Below are positions 13,645-22,583 of a stretch of DNA of 64,000 bases, piece after piece. Source of the DNA: Candidatus Forterrea multitransposorum CG_2015-17_Forterrea_25_41. GTDB taxonomy: Archaea > Iainarchaeota > Iainarchaeia > Iainarchaeales > CSSED10-239. A model generated the notes under the pieces. That model did not search any database. It was given only the letters and a program-made list of their open reading frames with translations, and was not told where the DNA came from. Position numbers and translations under genes: made by a program. The stretch lies in assembly GCA_009392915.1 (NCBI GenBank), contig CP045477.1:288001-352000 (forward strand), given 5' to 3'. How positions within the stretch are numbered: the first letter of the stretch is position 1; each line of letters begins with the position of its first letter.

Positions 13645-15843
13645 ATGGGAAGAAAAGAACAAGTTGCTGAGCTTGCAGAAAAGCTTATGGCAAATACAAA
13701 AAATATTAGAAATATTGCAATTATTGCACACATTGATCATGGAAAATCTACTTTAACAGACAATTTAGTTGCAACTGCTGGTTTAATTTCAAAAGATTTA
13801 GCAGGAGAACAAAGATTCATGGATTCATATGTTTTAGAACAAGAAAGAGGAATTACAATTAATTCTGCAAACGTTTCTGTTCCATGTGATATTGATGGTG
13901 AAAAATTTTTAATAAATATTATTGATACACCAGGTCACGTTGATTTCACTGGTGATGTTATAAGAGCGATGAGAGCTGTTGATGGTGCTGTTTTAGTTGT
14001 TGATGCTGTTGAAGGTGTTATGCCACAAACAGAAACTGTATTAAGACAAGCTTTAAGAGAAAAAGTAAAACCTGTACTTTTTATTAATAAAGTTGATAGA
14101 TTAATTACAGAAATGCATGTAACTCCAGAAGATATGCAAAAGAAATTTGTTAAAGTTGTAATGGATATTAATAATTTAATTGCAAAAAATGCTCCTGAAG
14201 AATTCAGAAAAGATTGGTTAGTAAATATTGCAGATGGTTCTGTATGTTTTGGTTCTGGTTTCCATAATTGGTCTCTTTCAGTTCCTGCTATGAAAAAATA
14301 TAATGTAACTTTTAAAGATGTTATTGAGTATGCAGAAAATGAAAAACAAAAAGAACTTGCAGATAAAATTCCAATTTCAGAAGTTTTCTTAGGAATGGTT
14401 GCAAAACATCTTCCTGATCCAAAGACTTCTCAAAAATATAGAATCCCAACTATTTGGAAAGGAGATCCTGAATCCCCAGAAGGAAAAGCAATGTCTGAAT
14501 GTAATACTACATCAGAAGAAGTTTCAATGATGGTAACTGATATTGTTTTAGATAAACATGCAGGAGATATTGCTTCTGGAAGAATTTATTCTGGATCAAT
14601 TAAAAAAGGAATGGATTTAAAAGTTTTAGGAACAGATAGAACAACTAAAGTTCAATATGTTGGTATTTATTTAGGTCCTGAAAGAGTTATTTTAGATGAA
14701 GTAAAATCTGGAAATATTGCTGCAATTATTGGACTTAAAGAAGTTTATGCTGGTCAAACAATTGCAAGTCACGATATTGTTCCATTTGAAGATTTCATGT
14801 CAGATGTTGAACCAGTAATGACTGTTTCTGTTGAAGCTAAAAATTCAAAAGATCTTCCAAGATTAATTCAAGTTATTCATAATATAACTAAAGAAGATCC
14901 AAACATAAAAGCTGAATTAAATCAAGATACAGGAGAACATCTTTTATCAGGTATGGGTGAACTTCACTTAGAAATTACACAATACAAGATTGAAAAAGAT
15001 AATAATATTCCAATAACTGTTTCACCACCAATTGTTGTTTACTATGAAACAACAACACAAGAATCTCCAGTTGTTGAAGGAAAGACTCCAAACAAACACA
15101 ATAAATTTAAAGTTAGAGTTGAACCAATCTCTTCAGAAATGCTTGAAAAAATTAGAAAAATTAAGTTTACTGGAAAGATAAGACCTAACAAAGATTTAGA
15201 TATTATTAAAAAATTACAAGAAGCAGGATTTGATGTTGACGAATCAAAGAATGTTTGGGCAATCAATAATCATTCAATTTTAATTAATAGAACAAAAGGA
15301 ATACAAAACTTAAATGAAGTTAGAGAACTTATAATTGAAGGATTTACAGATGCTACAAATGAAGGTCCTGTTGCTAAAGAAAAAGTATCTGGAATTATTG
15401 TTTCTCTTGAAGATGCAACATTACACGAAGATGCAATCCACAGAGGTCCTGCACAAGTTCTTCCTGCAATAACAAGAGCAATATATGCTGGTGTACTTGC
15501 TGGTAACTATGTTCTTTTAGAACCAAAACAAAGTTTAACTGTTTCAGTTCCTCAAGATTTTATGGGTTCTGTTTCTAAAGTTTTATCTTCAAGAAGAGCA
15601 CAAATTGAAGATATTAAAACAGAAGGAGATTCTTCAATTTTTATTAGTAAGATTCCTGTAAAATCAATGATTGGTTTCTCACAAGAGATGAGAGGAGAAA
15701 CACAAGGTAGAGCTGTTTGGACTGCTGAATATTTTGGTTATGAACAACTTCCAAAAAGTATGCTTAAAGACACAATCATAGATATTAGAAAAAGAAAAGG
15801 TATGGATCCTGAACCAAAACCTGCTGAGTTTTTCATGGATTAA
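13645..15843 (+). CDS. fusA: translation elongation factor 2 (aEF-2)
   Basis: G-domain AHIDHGKST, DTPGHVDF and NKVDR motifs. The diphthamide-loop is DATLHEDAIHRGPAQV. 732 aa. AAGGTGA Shine-Dalgarno lies upstream. Confidence 0.93.
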   Translation: MGRKEQVAELAEKLMANTKNIRNIAIIAHIDHGKSTLTDNLVATAGLISKDLAGEQRFMDSYVLEQERGITINSANVSVPCDIDGEKFLINIIDTPGHVDFTGDVIRAMRAVDGAVLVVDAVEGVMPQTETVLRQALREKVKPVLFINKVDRLITEMHVTPEDMQKKFVKVVMDINNLIAKNAPEEFRKDWLVNIADGSVCFGSGFHNWSLSVPAMKKYNVTFKDVIEYAENEKQKELADKIPISEVFLGMVAKHLPDPKTSQKYRIPTIWKGDPESPEGKAMSECNTTSEEVSMMVTDIVLDKHAGDIASGRIYSGSIKKGMDLKVLGTDRTTKVQYVGIYLGPERVILDEVKSGNIAAIIGLKEVYAGQTIASHDIVPFEDFMSDVEPVMTVSVEAKNSKDLPRLIQVIHNITKEDPNIKAELNQDTGEHLLSGMGELHLEITQYKIEKDNNIPITVSPPIVVYYETTTQESPVVEGKTPNKHNKFKVRVEPISSEMLEKIRKIKFTGKIRPNKDLDIIKKLQEAGFDVDESKNVWAINNHSILINRTKGIQNLNEVRELIIEGFTDATNEGPVAKEKVSGIIVSLEDATLHEDAIHRGPAQVLPAITRAIYAGVLAGNYVLLEPKQSLTVSVPQDFMGSVSKVLSSRRAQIEDIKTEGDSSIFISKIPVKSMIGFSQEMRGETQGRAVWTAEYFGYEQLPKSMLKDTIIDIRKRKGMDPEPKPAEFFMD

Positions 15844-16106: not shown

Positions 16107-16346
16107 ATGGCTGTAAAAAAGAAAGTAGTTGCAAAAAAAGCACCTGCTAAAAAAGCTGTTGTTAAGAAAAAAGCACCTGTTAAAAAAGTAGTTGCTAAAA
16201 AAGCACCAGCTAAAAAAGTAGTTGCAAAAAAAGCACCTGCTAAAAAAGCTGTTGTTAAAAAAGCACCTGCTAAAAAAGTAGTTGCTAAAAAAGCACCAGC
16301 TAAAAAAGTAGTTAAAAAGAAAGCACCTGCTAAAAAGAAAAAATAG
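16107..16346 (+). CDS. lysine/alanine-rich histone H1-like (Hc1/AlgP-like) tandem-repeat DNA-binding protein
   Basis: 79 aa made almost entirely of (V)VAKKAPAKK(A) repeats. A strong GGAGGGAG Shine-Dalgarno lies 6-8 nt upstream. The repeat is encoded by 30-nt tandem DNA repeats. Confidence 0.6.
   Translation: MAVKKKVVAKKAPAKKAVVKKKAPVKKVVAKKAPAKKVVAKKAPAKKAVVKKAPAKKVVAKKAPAKKVVKKKAPAKKKK
16125..16337. repeat. seven tandem copies of a 30-nt unit (GTAGTTGCAAAAAAAGCACCTGCTAAAAAA and variants) inside the H1-like gene
   Basis: Directly visible in the sequence. The units differ by synonymous and near-synonymous substitutions. Confidence 0.8.
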
Positions 16347-16476
16347 GTGTCATCTTTATTTAATAACTATTTTATTTTAATAAGTCTTTTTTTATAAAAG
16401 GCTTATTTTTTCTATTTTTTTAATATTTTCTTTTAAAAAATATATTTAAATACCTTAATATCTATCTATATATATC

Positions 16477-17604
16477 ATGATTAAAAATATAACTTTATTA
16501 GGTTCAAATAATGATATTGGTATTAAGACAATTGAGTTTTTAAAAAACAATACTAATAAGTTTAAAATCTATTCTCTTTCTTATGACTCTAAGGTAGATA
16601 ATCTTGATTTTTTTATATCTCAAATAAAAGATGTTTCTCCAAAGAAAGTTTTTATACCTTTAGAAAAAGATGCTGAATATATAGAATCTAAAACTAAGGT
16701 TGAGATAATTACAGGTACTGAAAATTTTCCTGAGTTTATAAAATCAAATGAAATTGATCAAGTAATTTCTTCTTTATCAGGACTTTCAAGTGTTAAAAAA
16801 ATATTATCAACTATTTATGAGTTTAAAGATATTACTTTACTTAATACATCTCCTTTTCTATATTGTGGAAGAATAATTACAAATGAAGTTAAATCAAAAG
16901 GAGTAAATTTTAATATTTTTTCATATCCAGTTTATTCTTTAGATTTTATTTTAAAATCTTCAAATATTAATTTTATTAAAAATATTAATTTATTTACAAA
17001 ACAAAAAAACAAAAAAGAAAAAATAACTATTAATGATTATAAAGATTTTGGAAGTTATCTTAAAGCATATTATTCTGAAAATAATATAAGACTTGTAAAT
17101 GATATGTTTATTATTTATTATTTATATAATATTCCAATAGATAATTTTAATTTTTATGAACAATCAGAAAGAATAATAAATATTGAAATAAAATTTTTAA
17201 ATGGTACAAGTGTTTTCTTTAAAGCAAATCTAGATATAGATAGTATTTTTAATTATTATTTTTTAGATAATGAAAAAATAGTTGAAAATAAAGAAAAAGA
17301 TCTTGATAAAATATCTTTTTCATATAAAAAAATAGATCCAACTAAAGAAAAGTTTTTAAGTTTAGGTATAGAAACTTTAAAAAAAGGTGGTTCTTTTCCA
17401 ATAATCTATTATATAACAATTGAAACATTACTTTATTATATTTATAAAAGAAAAATTAAAGAAAACATAGATATTTATAAAATTGTTAAAGAATTTTTAG
17501 AAGACAAAACACTTTATGATAAATTCCCTGATTTAAGTTCTGTTTATGCTATTGATAATAAGATAAATGAAAAAATCAAAAATAAATTTAATATTAAAAA
17601 CTAA
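16477..17604 (+). CDS. DXR-like protein (1-deoxy-D-xylulose-5-phosphate reductoisomerase homolog), apparently catalytically degenerate
   Basis: Alignment is collinear with E. coli Dxr as I recall it. ITLLGSNNDIG aligns to LTILGSTGSIG, LLNTSPFLYCGRII to LLANKESLVTCGRLF, and the YPVYSL position to the catalytic PVDSEH. NGTSVFFKANL aligns to DGSVLAQL, and a C-terminal helical domain is present. The GxGxxG and DSEH residues are replaced. Confidence 0.5.
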   Translation: MIKNITLLGSNNDIGIKTIEFLKNNTNKFKIYSLSYDSKVDNLDFFISQIKDVSPKKVFIPLEKDAEYIESKTKVEIITGTENFPEFIKSNEIDQVISSLSGLSSVKKILSTIYEFKDITLLNTSPFLYCGRIITNEVKSKGVNFNIFSYPVYSLDFILKSSNINFIKNINLFTKQKNKKEKITINDYKDFGSYLKAYYSENNIRLVNDMFIIYYLYNIPIDNFNFYEQSERIINIEIKFLNGTSVFFKANLDIDSIFNYYFLDNEKIVENKEKDLDKISFSYKKIDPTKEKFLSLGIETLKKGGSFPIIYYITIETLLYYIYKRKIKENIDIYKIVKEFLEDKTLYDKFPDLSSVYAIDNKINEKIKNKFNIKN

Positions 17605-18380
17605 ATTGATTCTTCATAAATTATAATTCCAGCATTACTTTTTTCTTTAGCTTCTTTTAAAAGATTTTTATTTTCTTCAATATATTTAACACCATAGTTT
17701 GCAACTACATGCCCAAAACAGTATTTATTATTTATATTAAAGGTAAGTCTATTAAATCTTGTACAATAATGACTTCCTCCAACACCAACAGCTTCAATCC
17801 ATTGATTTTTATTTTTAATTTCTTCTTTGTTATAATCTTTAATATTTTCTATTAAGATTTTAATCATATATTTTGAAACTAATTTATTTGTCCAATCATT
17901 TTCACAAGATCCTATTTCATAAAATAAAGTTGGTTCTTCAAGATATGGTCCATGATGCGTTGCTTCTTGTTTAATTTCATATTCTTTTATTTCTTTAGGT
18001 TTATTTTTTTTTAATTCTATTAAAAGTAATCTCATTAATATTGGGTCAGCTTTTACAACTGCATGATCTTTTCCACCTAATTCTGCAATTCCCCAATTAC
18101 CGATTGCATGTACTGTCATACATTTAGGTTTATTTTCAGAAAGAGTAGAATGTCTTGACAAAAAGATAATTTGATCATATTTTTTTTCTCCAACAATATT
18201 TTTTTCTGAAGAATAAATATGTGTTTCTGATATTTCTTTGAAGAATATTTCGTTTTTACTTTCAATATTTATTTTATAGATTTTATCATCTATTTTTTCT
18301 AAAGAATAATAATTAAACAATTCTTCCTTAAGATTAATTGAAGCTAAATCTTCTTTTGAAGTAATTATTAAAATTTTCAT
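17601..18380 (-). CDS. dtdA: D-aminoacyl-tRNA deacylase, archaeal type (DtdA family)
   Basis: MKILIITSKEDLAS N-terminus, LSRHS...HAIGNWG...GG, ATHHGPY, EIGS..NDW and GVGGSHY motifs match the archaeal D-Tyr-tRNA deacylase family. Confidence 0.75.
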   Translation of the reverse strand: MKILIITSKEDLASINLKEELFNYYSLEKIDDKIYKINIESKNEIFFKEISETHIYSSEKNIVGEKKYDQIIFLSRHSTLSENKPKCMTVHAIGNWGIAELGGKDHAVVKADPILMRLLLIELKKNKPKEIKEYEIKQEATHHGPYLEEPTLFYEIGSCENDWTNKLVSKYMIKILIENIKDYNKEEIKNKNQWIEAVGVGGSHYCTRFNRLTFNINNKYCFGHVVANYGVKYIEENKNLLKEAKEKSNAGIIIYEESI

Positions 18381-18491: not shown

Positions 18492-18845
18492 ATGATAAAT
18501 ATTACAAACTCTCTATTTCCGTTTAGATTAAACATTAATGAAAAAAACCCAATAGAATTAACTTTAAAAATAAAAAATATGGGTGTTGAAGATAAATTTA
18601 TAAGTTATGATGTAATTTTAGAAAGAACTCTTTCTTTTGATAAAAGTGGTCTTAAAAAATCAGTTTCAATAAGACACGGAACTTTAAAACCAGATGAAAC
18701 TATATCTGAAAAATTAGACATTTTTCCTTTCCAAGGTATTAAAGCAGGAGACCATAGAGTTTTAGTTATTGTTAACGAACATTATTTAGATTATACTTCT
18801 TTAAAACAAAAAACAGAGAAAGTAATTATCATTAGATCCTTCTAA
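18492..18845 (+). CDS. hypothetical protein
   Basis: 117-aa ORF with an AAGGTGA Shine-Dalgarno. No assignable motif. Confidence 0.4.
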   Translation: MINITNSLFPFRLNINEKNPIELTLKIKNMGVEDKFISYDVILERTLSFDKSGLKKSVSIRHGTLKPDETISEKLDIFPFQGIKAGDHRVLVIVNEHYLDYTSLKQKTEKVIIIRSF

Positions 18846-18899: not shown

Positions 18900-20078
18900 A
18901 TGTCCTTTATATATACTTGTCTTGAAAAATTATCTATTTTTCAAAAAAAATATAAATATTTAATTTTATTAATAACTATACTTATAACTATTTTCTTTAT
19001 ATTAGGTGTTCCAAAAATACAAATGGAAACTGATTTTTCAAAAATGTCTCCTTCAGAACTTGATATCTTTAAATTAAATGAAAAAATAACAGATAAGTTT
19101 GGAGGTTCTGATGTTGTTGTAATTATTTTAAAATATAATGATTCTTTTAATTCAAGTTTTAAAGAATATGATATCAGAAATATTGATGTTATAAATTATT
19201 TAGAAGAACTAGAAACTGAATTTAGAAAAGAAAGTCAAGTTAACACAGTAATTTCTGCATCAACTTATCTTTCTATGTTTTCTTTAAACTCAAATGAAGA
19301 TGTAATTAATTCTATTGATTTACTGCCAGGAATATCAGATTTTTTTAGTAAAGATTATAAAACAACAATTTTGTATTTAACTTCTGATTTATCTGGAAGT
19401 CAAGATAAAACAATTGCTTTTACTGAAATGATTAATGAAAAAATAAATCTTGTAAACAAACCAACTGGTATTGATGTTATGGTTACAGGAACAGCTCCTG
19501 TAGGTGTTACAGTTTTAGATATTTTAGGTAAAGATGCTGTTAAAACATTAATTTATGCGATTATTATTATATTATTTTTATTATTTATTACAGAAGCTTC
19601 TTTTTCAAGAGGTTTTTTAGTATTTTCTCCAATATTTTTAGGTGTTATTTGGACTATTGGAACAATGGGTTGGCTTTCAATTAAACTTTCAGTTGCAACT
19701 GTTGGAATTGGTGCAATGATTTTAGGTTTAGGTGTAGAGTATGGAGTTTTTATGACTTCAAGATACAGAGAAGAAAGAAATAAAGGAAAAACACAAGAAG
19801 AATCCTTAAAAGTTACTGTTCCTTCAATAGGTTCTTCAATTTTAGGTTCTGGCCTTACAACTATTGTTGGTTTCTTAGCATTAACTTTTTCAATTATGCC
19901 AGTTTTAAAAGATCTTGGTAATTCTCTTGCAATTGGAATTGGTTTTAGTTTATTTATTGCAATTTTTATTTCTCCAAGTCTTATAATTCTCTTTGAAGAC
20001 TTTACTTTTTGGTTCTCTAAAAAGATGCATGATACTTATAAAAATATCACTGATAAACAAGGAAGGTTGATAAAATGA
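18900..20078 (+). CDS. RND-superfamily/MMPL-like exporter, first half (N-terminal TM + extracytoplasmic domain + C-terminal TM bundle)
   Basis: Topology and the C-terminal block GLGVEYGVFMTSRYREE resemble COG1033/MMPL and SecDF-type half-transporters. The stop overlaps the next start (ATGA). Confidence 0.5.
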   Translation: MSFIYTCLEKLSIFQKKYKYLILLITILITIFFILGVPKIQMETDFSKMSPSELDIFKLNEKITDKFGGSDVVVIILKYNDSFNSSFKEYDIRNIDVINYLEELETEFRKESQVNTVISASTYLSMFSLNSNEDVINSIDLLPGISDFFSKDYKTTILYLTSDLSGSQDKTIAFTEMINEKINLVNKPTGIDVMVTGTAPVGVTVLDILGKDAVKTLIYAIIIILFLLFITEASFSRGFLVFSPIFLGVIWTIGTMGWLSIKLSVATVGIGAMILGLGVEYGVFMTSRYREERNKGKTQEESLKVTVPSIGSSILGSGLTTIVGFLALTFSIMPVLKDLGNSLAIGIGFSLFIAIFISPSLIILFEDFTFWFSKKMHDTYKNITDKQGRLIK

Positions 20079-21301
20079 GTTGGTATGATAAACCTTTGAG
20101 CAGGTATTCTTATTTTGTATCTCATAGACCTTATCTTGTAATACTAATTGTTATTATACTTATTATTTTTGCAATGTATTTTTCATCAAAAGTAGAATAT
20201 GTTAATTTTAGTAATTCTGATATGGTTCCTGATAATTATGAAGTTGTAAAAGCATTTAATCTTTTAGAAGATACTTTTGGAAATCCATCAAGTATTTTAA
20301 TTGCAATTGAACTTGATGATTCTTTTCAAGGTTATAATAAAGTAAATGATCTTAGAGATTATAAAGTTATTGAATATATTGATGTAATTTCTCAATATAT
20401 TGAAAACACAGATTATATTTTGGAAGTTTCAAGTATTTCAACAGCTGTAAAAGAAGTTAATAATGGAATAATTCCTAAATCTAATCTAGAAATTAATAAA
20501 CTTATTAGTAATAATTTTATTTTTGAAAATATAATTAGTAAAGATTATTCAATGACATTAATTAGAATTTCTTTAACTGATGATTTCAGTGAAGAAGATA
20601 ATGCTGAAGAAGTTGTTTTTAATCTTGAAAAAATAATTTCATCAATAGATGACCCTAATATAGGTCTTAATGTTAATGTAGCAGGAGAAATTTCAGCAGG
20701 ACCAATTGTTGAAAGAGAAATTGGACCTGATATGCAAAAGACAAGTAGTTATTCTATATATGGAATAATTATTTTATTAATATTTATATTTGTAGTTGGA
20801 GAAGTAATTTCTTCATTTAATAAAAAACAATCAAAAAAAATAAAAATTTTAACAGTTCTTGGTTCAATAAGGTTTGGACTTATTCCTCTTTCAACAATAT
20901 TAATTGGAGTAATTTGGACTTTTGGATATCTTGGACTTGTTAAAATGGGTCTTTCTTCAATTACTTCAGGAGTAATTTCAATGATTATGGGTATTGGAAT
21001 TGATTTTGGTATCCAGACAGTTATGAGATTTAAACAAGAAATAAAAGATAAAACTCCTGAAAAAGCAATGGAAGAAACCATGAAAAATGTTTTTATTCCA
21101 ATGGCAACAACAACTATTGCTGCATTAATTGGTTTTAAAGCAATGTCAATGGGAGAATTAACTTTACTTCAAGATTTAGGGAAAATGATGAGTTATGGAG
21201 TTACTGCTTGTTTTTTTGCAGCAATAACATTTGTTCCAGCAATTTTAGTTGTTTTGGAAAAATGGATTTTATCTTTAAAAGTAAAATTTAAAAAGAAATG
21301 A
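20075..21301 (+). CDS. RND-superfamily/MMPL-like exporter, second half
   Basis: Same architecture as the preceding gene. GIGIDFGIQTVMRFKQE resembles the MMPL GIGxDYxI..R..EE motif. The two genes are translationally coupled. Confidence 0.5.
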   Translation: MSWYDKPLSRYSYFVSHRPYLVILIVIILIIFAMYFSSKVEYVNFSNSDMVPDNYEVVKAFNLLEDTFGNPSSILIAIELDDSFQGYNKVNDLRDYKVIEYIDVISQYIENTDYILEVSSISTAVKEVNNGIIPKSNLEINKLISNNFIFENIISKDYSMTLIRISLTDDFSEEDNAEEVVFNLEKIISSIDDPNIGLNVNVAGEISAGPIVEREIGPDMQKTSSYSIYGIIILLIFIFVVGEVISSFNKKQSKKIKILTVLGSIRFGLIPLSTILIGVIWTFGYLGLVKMGLSSITSGVISMIMGIGIDFGIQTVMRFKQEIKDKTPEKAMEETMKNVFIPMATTTIAALIGFKAMSMGELTLLQDLGKMMSYGVTACFFAAITFVPAILVVLEKWILSLKVKFKKK

Positions 21302-21332
21302 AATATTTTTAAAAAAAAAGGTGTGATTAAAT

Positions 21333-22583
21333 ATGAATAAAAAATATATGCTTATAGTTTTGGTTTTATTAACAATGATTTTAATAAAGCCAATTTATGC
21401 AAATGATTTAGATGTAGTTAAATTATCTGCAAATTTGCAAAATCAAGATCCAGATCCTGCAGTTCCTGGAGAATACTTAGAACTAAGATTTAATGTTTAT
21501 AAAACAGGTAATAATTCTGCAGAAAATATTCAATTTTACTTAGATGTTGAACATCCTTTATCATTTGATTTATCAGATACTCCTGATAGAAATATTTCTT
21601 TATGGAAAGGTCAATCAGGAGATGATTGGTATTATACTCTTTACTATAAAGTTTTAGTTGATTCTTTAGCTTTAGAAGGAGATTATGAAATTTCATTAAG
21701 ATATAAATATAATGATATAGATGTATGGAATATTGAAAAATTTAATATTAGAGTTGATAATAAAGAAGTCCCTAATTTTGTTTTTGGAAATTTATTAACA
21801 ACTCCTAGAAAACTTTTAAGTGGTCAAGAAGAAGCAAAAATAGATATTGATTTATTAAATATTGGAAAAGGGGATGCAGAAAATGTAATTCTAGAAGTAA
21901 ATCTTCCAGAAGGGTTTAATCCTACATATGCATATTCAGATAGAATTAATTTAGGGAATATTGATGCTTCTCAAAATAAAACTGGATCAATATATCTTGA
22001 TATTGATGATGAAATCAAATCAGGAATATATCAAGCTAAAGTTAAGGTAAAATATATTGAAGAAAGCGATTCTAAAAAAGAATTAAAAGAAAAAGAAATG
22101 ATTTTAGAAATTCCTGTTAAAGCAAAACCATATCTTAAAGTTACAAGTCAAGAAGTTTTAAATGAAACAAAAACTATATTTCCTGGACAAACTATTGACA
22201 TTAAGATAAATGTTAAAAACTTTGGAGATAAAGATGCAGAATCAGTTTCTTTAAGAGTTTTAAAAGATTCTTCTCATCCTTTTGATTTAGTTGAAAAATC
22301 TGATTTTATAGGTAATTTAGAATCTTTGCAAGAAGGTGAGGCTGTAATATCTATAGAAGTTGATCCTAATGCAAATTTAAAAGAATATAAATTAAATGTA
22401 GAAATTAGATCTATATCTGAAAATACAGTATTTATTGATGATGATTCAATTATTTTAAAAGTTGTTTCTGAAGATAAAAATAAAAATAATTTATTGATTC
22501 CTATTTTAGTAGTCTTATTTTTATTAGCTGGTTTGATTTATTATATATCAATTAAGAAAAAAAATAAAAAAGGAAAAAAATAA
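21333..22583 (+). CDS. secreted cell-surface protein with three CARDB/Ig-like repeats and a C-terminal TM anchor + basic tail
   Basis: N-terminal signal peptide. Three ~100-aa repeats share the pattern L..N.G.GDAENV.LEV. C-terminal LIPILVVLFLLAGLIYYISIKKKNKKGKK. Confidence 0.55.
   Translation: MNKKYMLIVLVLLTMILIKPIYANDLDVVKLSANLQNQDPDPAVPGEYLELRFNVYKTGNNSAENIQFYLDVEHPLSFDLSDTPDRNISLWKGQSGDDWYYTLYYKVLVDSLALEGDYEISLRYKYNDIDVWNIEKFNIRVDNKEVPNFVFGNLLTTPRKLLSGQEEAKIDIDLLNIGKGDAENVILEVNLPEGFNPTYAYSDRINLGNIDASQNKTGSIYLDIDDEIKSGIYQAKVKVKYIEESDSKKELKEKEMILEIPVKAKPYLKVTSQEVLNETKTIFPGQTIDIKINVKNFGDKDAESVSLRVLKDSSHPFDLVEKSDFIGNLESLQEGEAVISIEVDPNANLKEYKLNVEIRSISENTVFIDDDSIILKVVSEDKNKNNLLIPILVVLFLLAGLIYYISIKKKNKKGKK

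Follow-up and report, generated by a model that had tools for sequence, protein, structure and literature searches.

A conserved Dxr homolog with predicted loss of catalysis in a narrow lineage of Iainarchaeota

[quoted passage not shown] The question is raised by a 64-kb stretch of Candidatus Forterrea multitransposorum CG_2015-17_Forterrea_25_41 (contig CP045477.1, positions 288,001 to 352,000). The full stretch, with a G+C content of about 24%, is called the window here, and all positions are counted within it. According to the list of open reading frames (ORFs) of the window, the Dxr-like gene at 16477..17604 on the forward strand begins with ATG and comprises 375 codons for 375 amino acids (aa). 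The evidence points, with a probability that we put at roughly 60%, to a Dxr-derived pseudoenzyme, folded and selected for another role, which is likely a non-redox binding or regulatory protein of probable bacterial origin.

The usual isoprenoid route of archaea is the mevalonate pathway, whose genes have also been reported in Diapherotrites (PMC6107057, PMC11052028). Sparse homologs of the MEP (2-C-methyl-D-erythritol 4-phosphate) pathway in DPANN archaea were noted earlier (PMC6107057). A complete bacterial MEP pathway including dxr is reported to have been acquired by horizontal transfer in Woesearchaeota subgroup J (PMC8421398), and complete transferred pathways of this kind are also reported in three orders of Micrarchaeota, a phylum grouped with Iainarchaeota (PMC12892359). 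A first-pass annotation of the window had called a Dxr-like gene unexpected in archaea; in view of these transfers to DPANN archaea, such a gene is less surprising than was supposed there. The unusual point is the degenerate yet conserved state of the gene, not the presence of a member of the Dxr family. Among about 56 annotated ORFs of the 64-kb window, which is part of a genome of roughly 0.84 Mb, neither dxs, ispD-H nor any other MEP gene was found. Full-text literature searches found no description of a degenerate, non-catalytic Dxr or of a Dxr-derived pseudoenzyme.

Homology to Dxr and the replacement of catalytic residues

The protein is homologous to Dxr over all three domains, and the predicted fold is retained. 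End-to-end alignment with Dxr across the three domains had been claimed in the first-pass annotation, and several comparisons uphold it. Alignment of the profile of the clade to which the protein belongs with a profile of 25 true Dxr sequences (hhalign) gave a probability of 99.94% and E=3.7e-37 over 371 aligned columns, end to end. Searches with phmmer against the Dxr chains of the PDB (6mh4, E=2e-13) gave near end-to-end alignments, covering residues 2-327 and, for 1r0k, 3-363. An AlphaFold2 model built from clade sequences only, with no templates, was confident (predicted local distance difference test, pLDDT, 91.3; predicted template modelling score, pTM, 0.89), and in Foldseek its top 50 PDB matches were all Dxr, with template modelling (TM) scores of 0.81-0.86 over the full length at 13-18% identity; superposition on crystal structures of Dxr gave TM scores of 0.84-0.86. 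The claim needs correction at the level of single-domain hidden Markov models (HMMs). Of the Pfam models, PF02670 for the N-terminal domain is the sole one to recognise the protein (E=4e-15, 57 bits); the central domain is too diverged for the catalytic-domain model PF08436, which does not match the protein at all, and PF13288 (DXPR_C) reaches 21.7 bits, under its cutoff of 27. Nothing placed the protein in DXR-II (DRL): all significant HMM, sequence and fold matches were to DXR-I, and no other family was significant.

In true Dxr, which needs NADPH and a divalent cation, Asp150, Glu152 and Glu231 are the metal ligands, Ser186, Ser222, Asn227 and Lys228 bind the phosph(on)ate, and Trp212, Met214 and Met276 close the site (PMC9782300). 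A residue census was made by aligning 27 clade sequences with 46 true Dxr in E. coli numbering, the E. coli reference being identical to PDB 1k5h_A. G11, K125, E126, D150, S151, E152, H153, S186, H209, P210, G215, K228, H257 and M276 are invariant in 46/46 true Dxr and are replaced or deleted in the clade. Retained are G8, G14 (23/27), N38, N124 (21/27) and E231 in the form of D or E (24/27). Out of 21 key residues, 1-5 are left in clade members and 18-21 in true Dxr, a bimodal distribution with no bridging forms, and none of seven Dxr sequence motifs is present in any clade sequence. Among 177 retrieved proteins no intermediates bridging true Dxr and the clade were found, only two strays outside it. 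P0051 (386 aa) holds 16/21 key residues and is essentially a true Dxr, intact except for S151 to D, H153 to P and M276 to T; P0124 (355 aa) holds 7/21 and looks truncated. Both may represent other divergent or degenerating Dxr lineages.

The replacements extend through each part of the former active site. Of the metal triad, D150 has become S or T (27/27) and E152 has become P, Q or T; E231 alone is plausibly kept, and it aligns with D209 of the Dxr-like protein. The first-pass annotation was right that the D, E and H of PVDSEH are lost, and slightly off in the register: D150 aligns with S149, S151 with Y150, E152 with P151 and H153 with V152, so that the corresponding segment is FSYPV and not YPVYSL. 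No alignment register puts an acidic residue at D150 or E152. Neither a lack of Dxr-family HMM matches nor conservation of the catalytic residues was seen. The reported change of the dinucleotide-binding loop from GSTGSIG to GSNNDIG is borne out by the alignment. Across the clade G11 is replaced by N, T, R or S and T10 by N, D or Q, S12 is variable, and positions 11-14 of the Dxr-like protein are variable, giving loops such as GSNNxxG, GSDTxxG, GSDSYRG and GSQRKKS/ASQRKKS. The column of E. coli K37, a ligand of the 2'-phosphate, holds D, N or E in 21/27 clade sequences, and this column is also variable among true Dxr. The loop is altered and variable, and the more divergent half of the clade also lacks a conserved acidic residue behind beta2, so that a dinucleotide is probably not bound. 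In the phosphate pocket S186 is replaced within a shortened segment and K228 is deleted or changed to L, and whether S222 and N227 are kept varies with the register of the alignment. The lid HPNWSMG (H209, W212, M214) has given way to a variable segment one residue shorter, SGGPF is replaced or shortened, and M276 has become I or L.

With the dinucleotide loop, the lid, the metal site and the greater part of the phosphate pocket lost, the Dxr mechanism would no longer be usable, and the protein is predicted to be unable to convert DXP to MEP by it. Binding of NADPH and metal is presumably lost as well. All NCBIfam equivalog models of Dxr are missed by a wide interval: TIGR00243 at 76.7 bits against a cutoff of 315.7, NF009114 at 82.6 against 461, and NF003938 at 64.9 against 515. 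Judged by its residues, the protein is outside the Dxr/IspC isofunctional family (EC 1.1.1.267) despite its homology, and should not be annotated as Dxr.

Distribution, selection and origin of the clade

A word-indexed search of 5.8 billion proteins retrieved 21 clusters at 32-100% identity, followed by true three-domain Dxr at about 26%. Proteins of these clusters are 371-384 aa long, except for one 338-aa entry on a 1.2-kb contig, and PF02670 is the sole domain detected in them. With exhaustive phmmer over 1.84 billion representatives, full-length clade members scored at least 143 bits and everything else at most 74 bits. The clade comprises at least 27 full-length sequences. Genome records that hold it are metagenome-assembled genomes named 'Candidatus Iainarchaeum', 'ainarchaeum' or unclassified archaeon, that is, Iainarchaeota (Diapherotrites) of the DPANN archaea; the census of genome contigs was built on an alignment of the close subclade and covers that subclade. 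Many clade members are labelled Dxr by the Joint Genome Institute (JGI) pipeline (P0006, P0007, P0010, P0013, P0017, P0018, P0021, P0033, P0036 and P0186), and these labels are likely a systematic mis-annotation.

The gene is under purifying selection and is not decaying. Its ratio of nonsynonymous to synonymous substitution rates (dN/dS) is 0.13 against a 90%-identical ortholog (locus L007), and for the same genome pair the ratio is 0.14 for dtdA, 0.09 for elongation factor 2 (EF-2) and 0.08 for a 117-aa ORF beyond dtdA. Taken separately, the three domains have values of 0.09, 0.14 and 0.16. Such ratios are fully trusted for the 90% pair alone and more cautiously for a pair at 62%, as synonymous sites at larger distances are saturated and compositionally biased. 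All orthologs examined, down to about 30% identity, are intact full-length ORFs. The clade also has conserved motifs of its own: SVKKILS..E.KDITLLNTSPLLYSG.II, YPxYS, YSxNKIRLVND, SIFNYYFL, KGGSxPII and YPDLS.

The distribution of conservation over the protein has shifted. Of the positions conserved at 85% or more in the clade, 64% fall in the N-terminal domain and 21% in the central domain, compared to 26% and 56% in true Dxr. Among the conserved catalytic-domain positions of true Dxr are 4 His, 5 Glu, 4 Asn and 3 Asp; no His or Cys stands among the positions conserved at this level in the clade. Within the most conserved segment, aa 102-141, G102, S105, K107, I109, L110, S111, E115, K117, D118, L121, P126, L128, Y129, G131, I133, I134, E137 and K141 are conserved, and LLNTSP replaces the LANKES of Dxr. 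Y153 and S154 are conserved across the clade, as are S200, K/N203 and R/K205 in the helix S200-D209, which is possibly a remnant of an anion-binding site. Compared across the same genomes, the Dxr-like protein evolves fastest (32-63% identity, against 50-71% for DtdA and 77-92% for EF-2). Basic charge was considered as a hint of nucleic acid binding and set aside: the median isoelectric point (pI) is 8.9 in the clade and 6.2 in true Dxr, but the median of the window proteome is 8.96.

The position of the gene is likewise constant. When loci were sought with the protein as query, 8/8 of them, reaching down to about 32% identity, showed the gene order EF-2, usually a Lys-rich ORF, the Dxr-like gene and convergent dtdA (archaeal D-aminoacyl-tRNA deacylase). 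Farther upstream in the relatives lie rpoA, an L7Ae-domain ribosomal protein, S12, S7 and a variable insert before EF-2; RNA polymerase subunit genes and a gene for an L7Ae-family ribosomal protein are found farther upstream in the window too, matching this order. A sample of loci obtained with the Dxr-like protein is biased towards the gene, and the test was repeated starting from DtdA. Among 39 metagenomic dtdA loci, 32 had enough flanking sequence to judge. A convergent Dxr-like gene directly follows dtdA in 29/29 loci whose DtdA is at least 47% identical to that of the window (tblastn gaps of -13 to +125 nt), and is absent from 3/3 loci whose DtdA is at most 35% identical to it. The Dxr-like gene is therefore a fixed character of single origin in one lineage. 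An ancestral true dxr in the same slot was considered and rejected, as the two outgroup dtdA loci examined hold a helix-turn-helix regulator and an unknown ORF there. The four nearest true Dxr with readable context all lie in a bacterial cdsA-dxr-rseP arrangement, from which a bacterial donor is probable. According to this scenario, the ancestor of a narrow lineage of Iainarchaeota would have acquired a bacterial-type dxr in a single event. Vertical descent would have followed, with the gene staying in the same place between EF-2 and a convergent dtdA.

Possible roles of the protein

Three findings carry the interpretation as a pseudoenzyme: loss of catalytic and cofactor residues across the clade (1-5/21 kept), an intact predicted fold (pLDDT 91.3), and purifying selection (0.13) in all three domains. 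The suggestion of a pseudoenzyme or repurposed scaffold made at the first pass is supported by the same findings. Constraint would now lie on the C-terminal edge of the Rossmann sheet, where residues 102-141 form the loops that follow beta4 and beta5. It would also bear on Y153 and S154, in the opening turn of the central domain, and on a polar helix (S200, K203, R205, N208, D209) homologous to the Dxr helix that holds the substrate phosphate and E231. Because these elements line the interdomain cleft in Dxr, it is proposed that the old nicotinamide and substrate cleft was remodelled into a site for another ligand, possibly anionic, or for a partner. The protein would then act without redox chemistry, as a ligand sensor, regulator or scaffold. 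Dimerisation may also be kept, since the counterpart of the motif SIFNYYFL in true Dxr is the linker, a part of the dimer interface there (PMC9782300).

Several points weigh against this interpretation. Loss of NADPH and metal binding is read from sequence, and the conserved residues are placed in the cleft by homology to published Dxr structures. Bacterial origin is drawn from the context of best hits, and the absence of other MEP genes is a statement about the window. Some features of Dxr persist, namely N124 (N in 21/27), E231 (D/E in 24/27) and, by register, S222 or N227. The polar helix is conserved at the old phosphate site, where residual or new catalysis on a phosphorylated substrate is possible, and a new active site might in principle be built from K107, K117, D118, K141, Y153, S154, K196 and D209.

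The last two points lead to the strongest competing explanation, that of a neofunctionalised enzyme with a new activity in the old interdomain cleft, independent of cofactor or with a different one, for example on a phosphorylated sugar or nucleotide. Polar residues are conserved near the cleft (K107, N123-T124-S125-P126, Y153, S154) and on the homolog of the phosphate helix (S200, K203, R205, N208, D209), selection acts on all three domains, and one metal-ligand position holds D or E in 24/27. An enzyme of this kind is conceivable, though we consider it clearly less probable than a non-catalytic role: there is no conserved His or Cys and there are few conserved acidic residues, the loop that formed the active-site lid is shortened and variable, evolution is faster than in the neighbouring enzymes when one set of genomes is compared (identities of 32-63%, and of 50-71% in DtdA), and no gene neighbours resemble a pathway.

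The tail-to-tail pair with dtdA suggests another explanation, an accessory of translation quality control that would work with DtdA or EF-2, for example by binding tRNA or aminoacyl-tRNA. In all loci of both samples (29/29 via DtdA and 8/8 via the protein) the gene runs up to or into the 3' end of dtdA while the flanks vary, and EF-2 is always upstream. However, convergent genes are not co-transcribed and the Dxr-like gene apparently has its own promoter. The carriers form one narrow lineage, with EF-2 at 77-92% identity, in which vertical inheritance of a packed locus explains the synteny equally well. Pfam detected no RNA-binding domain, and the basic pI of 8.8, equal to the genome background (median 8.96), does not hint at RNA binding. 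This role is unlikely. A more specific form of it, and one to which we give slightly less credence again, is that the Dxr scaffold was recruited in this lineage as a dedicated partner or sensor in translation quality control, where it would work alongside DtdA, EF-2 or both and might hold tRNA or a phosphorylated ligand in its remodelled cleft. If true, the pairing with dtdA would reflect function and not mere descent, and the protein would be the first reductoisomerase-derived pseudoenzyme with a non-metabolic role.

It is very improbable that the protein is still a working, highly divergent Dxr, or an NAD(P)H reductase with a non-canonical loop. The predicted full-length Dxr fold, the Dxr labels of the JGI pipeline and the use of the bacterial MEP pathway by some DPANN archaea (PMC8421398, PMC12892359) would fit such an enzyme. 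Against it stand the scores of 64.9-82.6 bits where the equivalog cutoffs are 316-515, the replacement of D150, E152, K125, E126, S186, K228, H209, W212, H257, M276 and the central Gly of the loop, residues described as conserved and as needed to bind metal, substrate and inhibitors (PMC9782300), and the lack of MEP genes within the window. A decaying, functionless relic of a transferred dxr, to which the loss of all catalytic motifs and the relatively fast evolution might point, is effectively refuted by the selection data (dN/dS of 0.13, similar to dtdA and seen in all three domains), together with intact ORFs in every ortholog to about 30% identity, strongly conserved motifs specific to the clade and a confident structure prediction.

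Genomic surroundings, related systems and significance

The features of the gene and of its surroundings are collected in Table 1. In the window, tblastn with true Dxr revealed no second Dxr-like copy, and a scan with Rfam gave no match. The convergent overlap with dtdA noted in the first-pass annotation is exact: the 4 nt 'ctaa' at 17601-17604 are read on both strands, as TAA on the forward and TAG on the reverse strand. A TTTAAA(A/T)A element is found at -26 to -33 from the ATG in 7/9 orthologous loci, which suggests that the Dxr-like gene is transcribed from a promoter of its own into an mRNA with a short leader or none.

Table 1. Coordinates of the Dxr-like gene, its parts and other features, in window positions
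Feature	Position	Strand	Remarks
Dxr-like ORF, 375 aa	16477..17604	+	Stop TAA at 17602-17604; predicted three-domain Dxr fold, putatively non-catalytic clade
N-terminal Rossmann-like domain, aa 1-147	16477..16917	+	PF02670; 36/56 clade positions conserved at 85% or more
Degenerate dinucleotide-binding loop GSNNDIG, aa 9-15	16501..16521	+	GSTGSIG in Dxr; from alignment
Most conserved clade segment, aa 102-141	16780..16899	+	From conservation profile; candidate new functional surface
Central domain, aa 148-265	16918..17271	+	Homologous to Dxr catalytic domain; no PF08436 match
Former metal/substrate motif S149 Y150 P151 V152 Y153 S154	16921..16938	+	Replaces D150 S151 E152 H153 (numbered as in E. 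coli)
Helix S200-D209 (YSxNKIRLVND)	17074..17103	+	Homologous to Dxr phosphate-binding/metal helix
Aromatic motif SIFNYYFL, aa 256-263	17242..17265	+	Clade-specific; region aligned with Dxr linker
C-terminal helical domain, aa 291-375	17347..17601	+	Weak DXPR_C match; conserved KGGSxPII, YPDLS
TATA-like box tttaaata	16445..16452	+	About 28 nt 5' of the Dxr-like ATG
EF-2	13645..15843	+	Upstream neighbour; kept in all 8/8 relative loci examined
Small Lys-rich repeat protein, 79 aa, 44% Lys	16107..16346	+	Between EF-2 and Dxr-like gene; position kept in most relatives
dtdA	17601..18380	-	PF04414, E=2.5e-48; convergent, invariant neighbour of Dxr-like gene
117-aa ORF	18492..18845	+	No Pfam match; divergent from dtdA
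Two MMPL-family transporter genes and a CARDB-domain protein	18900..22583		Slot of the thymidylate/folate cluster of relatives
ATP-dependent DNA ligase ORF, 187 aa	220..783	+	C-terminal domain and last 29 adenylation-domain positions only
CofE-like protein, 396 aa	48058..49248	-	F420-0:gamma-glutamyl ligase-like
Long ORF, at least 1,464 aa	59608..64000	+	Open at window end

The small Lys-rich protein recurs in relatives (L001 7707-7835, L004 7682-7921, L005 3960-4130, L006 7587-7895, L015 6690-6917), with 43-47% Lys, repeats of the types AKKAPAKK and KKAPVKKAVV, and a length of 42-102 aa depending on the genome. It matches the histone H1-like HC2 family weakly (35 bits, under the cutoff of 40), and may be a chromatin or nucleic-acid-binding protein with a variable number of repeats. 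The 117-aa ORF (dN/dS 0.08 against L007) is also present in relatives (L001 10029-10382, L005 6387-6740, L006 10013-10366, L015 9210-9563, L016 9065-9397). Its length is exactly 117 aa in 5 genomes and 110 aa in a sixth, and it carries the motifs DKSGLKK, PFQGIKPG and VNEHYxDY. After this block, six relatives (L003, L005, L006, L015, L016, L017) carry a thymidylate/folate cluster of SHMT, thymidylate kinase, ThyA or ThyX depending on the relative, DHFR and dCMP deaminase. This cluster was considered as a functional link of the Dxr-like gene and set aside: it is missing from the corresponding slot in the window, and dtdA separates the two.

Other observations concern distant parts of the window. 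The long ORF at its end begins with a hydrophobic, signal-like segment MKTKRLWAIFFLILMINGVFA, and probably encodes a giant secreted or surface protein of a kind common in DPANN archaea. The DNA ligase gene may be truncated, frameshifted or split, because the 219 nt upstream of the ORF are too short for the missing N-terminal part. The CofE-like protein, odd in a reduced genome whose window shows no further F420 genes, has a 218-position Pfam match spread over residues 14-394, which points to large insertions.

Compared to known systems, the closest is Dxr/IspC itself (DXR-I, EC 1.1.1.267; PF02670, PF08436 and PF13288; TIGR00243). The Dxr-like protein shares its fold of a Rossmann N-terminal domain, a central alpha/beta domain, a linker and a C-terminal helical bundle, with end-to-end homology and similar length. 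Unlike Dxr/IspC, it lacks two of the three metal ligands, S186 and K228, the lid, K125 and E126, H257 and M276, as well as the central Gly and the basic 2'-phosphate ligand of the NADPH site, and it scores under the equivalog cutoffs. Its gene adjoins EF-2 and dtdA in archaea, whereas bacterial dxr sits in uppS-cdsA-dxr-rseP. Gal80, of the GFO/IDH/MocA fold, and NmrA, of the SDR fold, are regulators derived from oxidoreductases of families unrelated to Dxr: Rossmann-fold enzymes that became binding or regulatory proteins after loss of catalytic residues, the course also proposed for the Dxr-like protein. Both still bind dinucleotides as signals; in the Dxr-like clade, unlike them, the dinucleotide loop is degenerate and variable.

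Genuine Dxr known from DPANN archaea (Woesearchaeota subgroup J, and the Micrarchaeota orders Norongarragalinales, Zaosheniarchaeales and Micrarchaeales) likewise represents a bacterial dxr lineage in DPANN archaea (PMC8421398, PMC12892359). Set beside the clade by description, it offers a credible type of source, and the transfer has a precedent in it. It is reported within complete or nearly complete MEP pathways and is taken as functional, whereas the Dxr-like clade is degenerate, stands alone and was seen in a lineage of Iainarchaeota only. DXR-II (DRL), with its sisters DLO1 and DLO2, also displays functional divergence around DXP reductoisomerase in Rossmann-fold families, but it is described as a product of convergent evolution with no homology to DXR-I (PMC3847144), and keeps NAD(P)-dependent catalysis. 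The protein described here is instead a homolog of DXR-I in which that catalysis appears to be lost.

These findings point to what appears to be a novel and non-catalytic form of a familiar enzyme family, confined to a narrow archaeal lineage; the narrowness of the clade limits its significance. Within these limits, the EF-2, Dxr-like and dtdA locus is a precise marker of the lineage. The presence of MEP and mevalonate genes in DPANN archaea is used to argue for lipid autonomy or host dependence, and Dxr mislabels can yield false calls of a partial MEP pathway. For evolution, the clade offers a clear example of how a gene of probable bacterial origin was fixed and repurposed in a reduced archaeal genome. 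Moreover, Dxr is a heavily studied drug target that has been treated as a uniform isofunctional family, and a clade in which the predicted fold was kept and the chemistry apparently lost would be a natural experiment on its scaffold.

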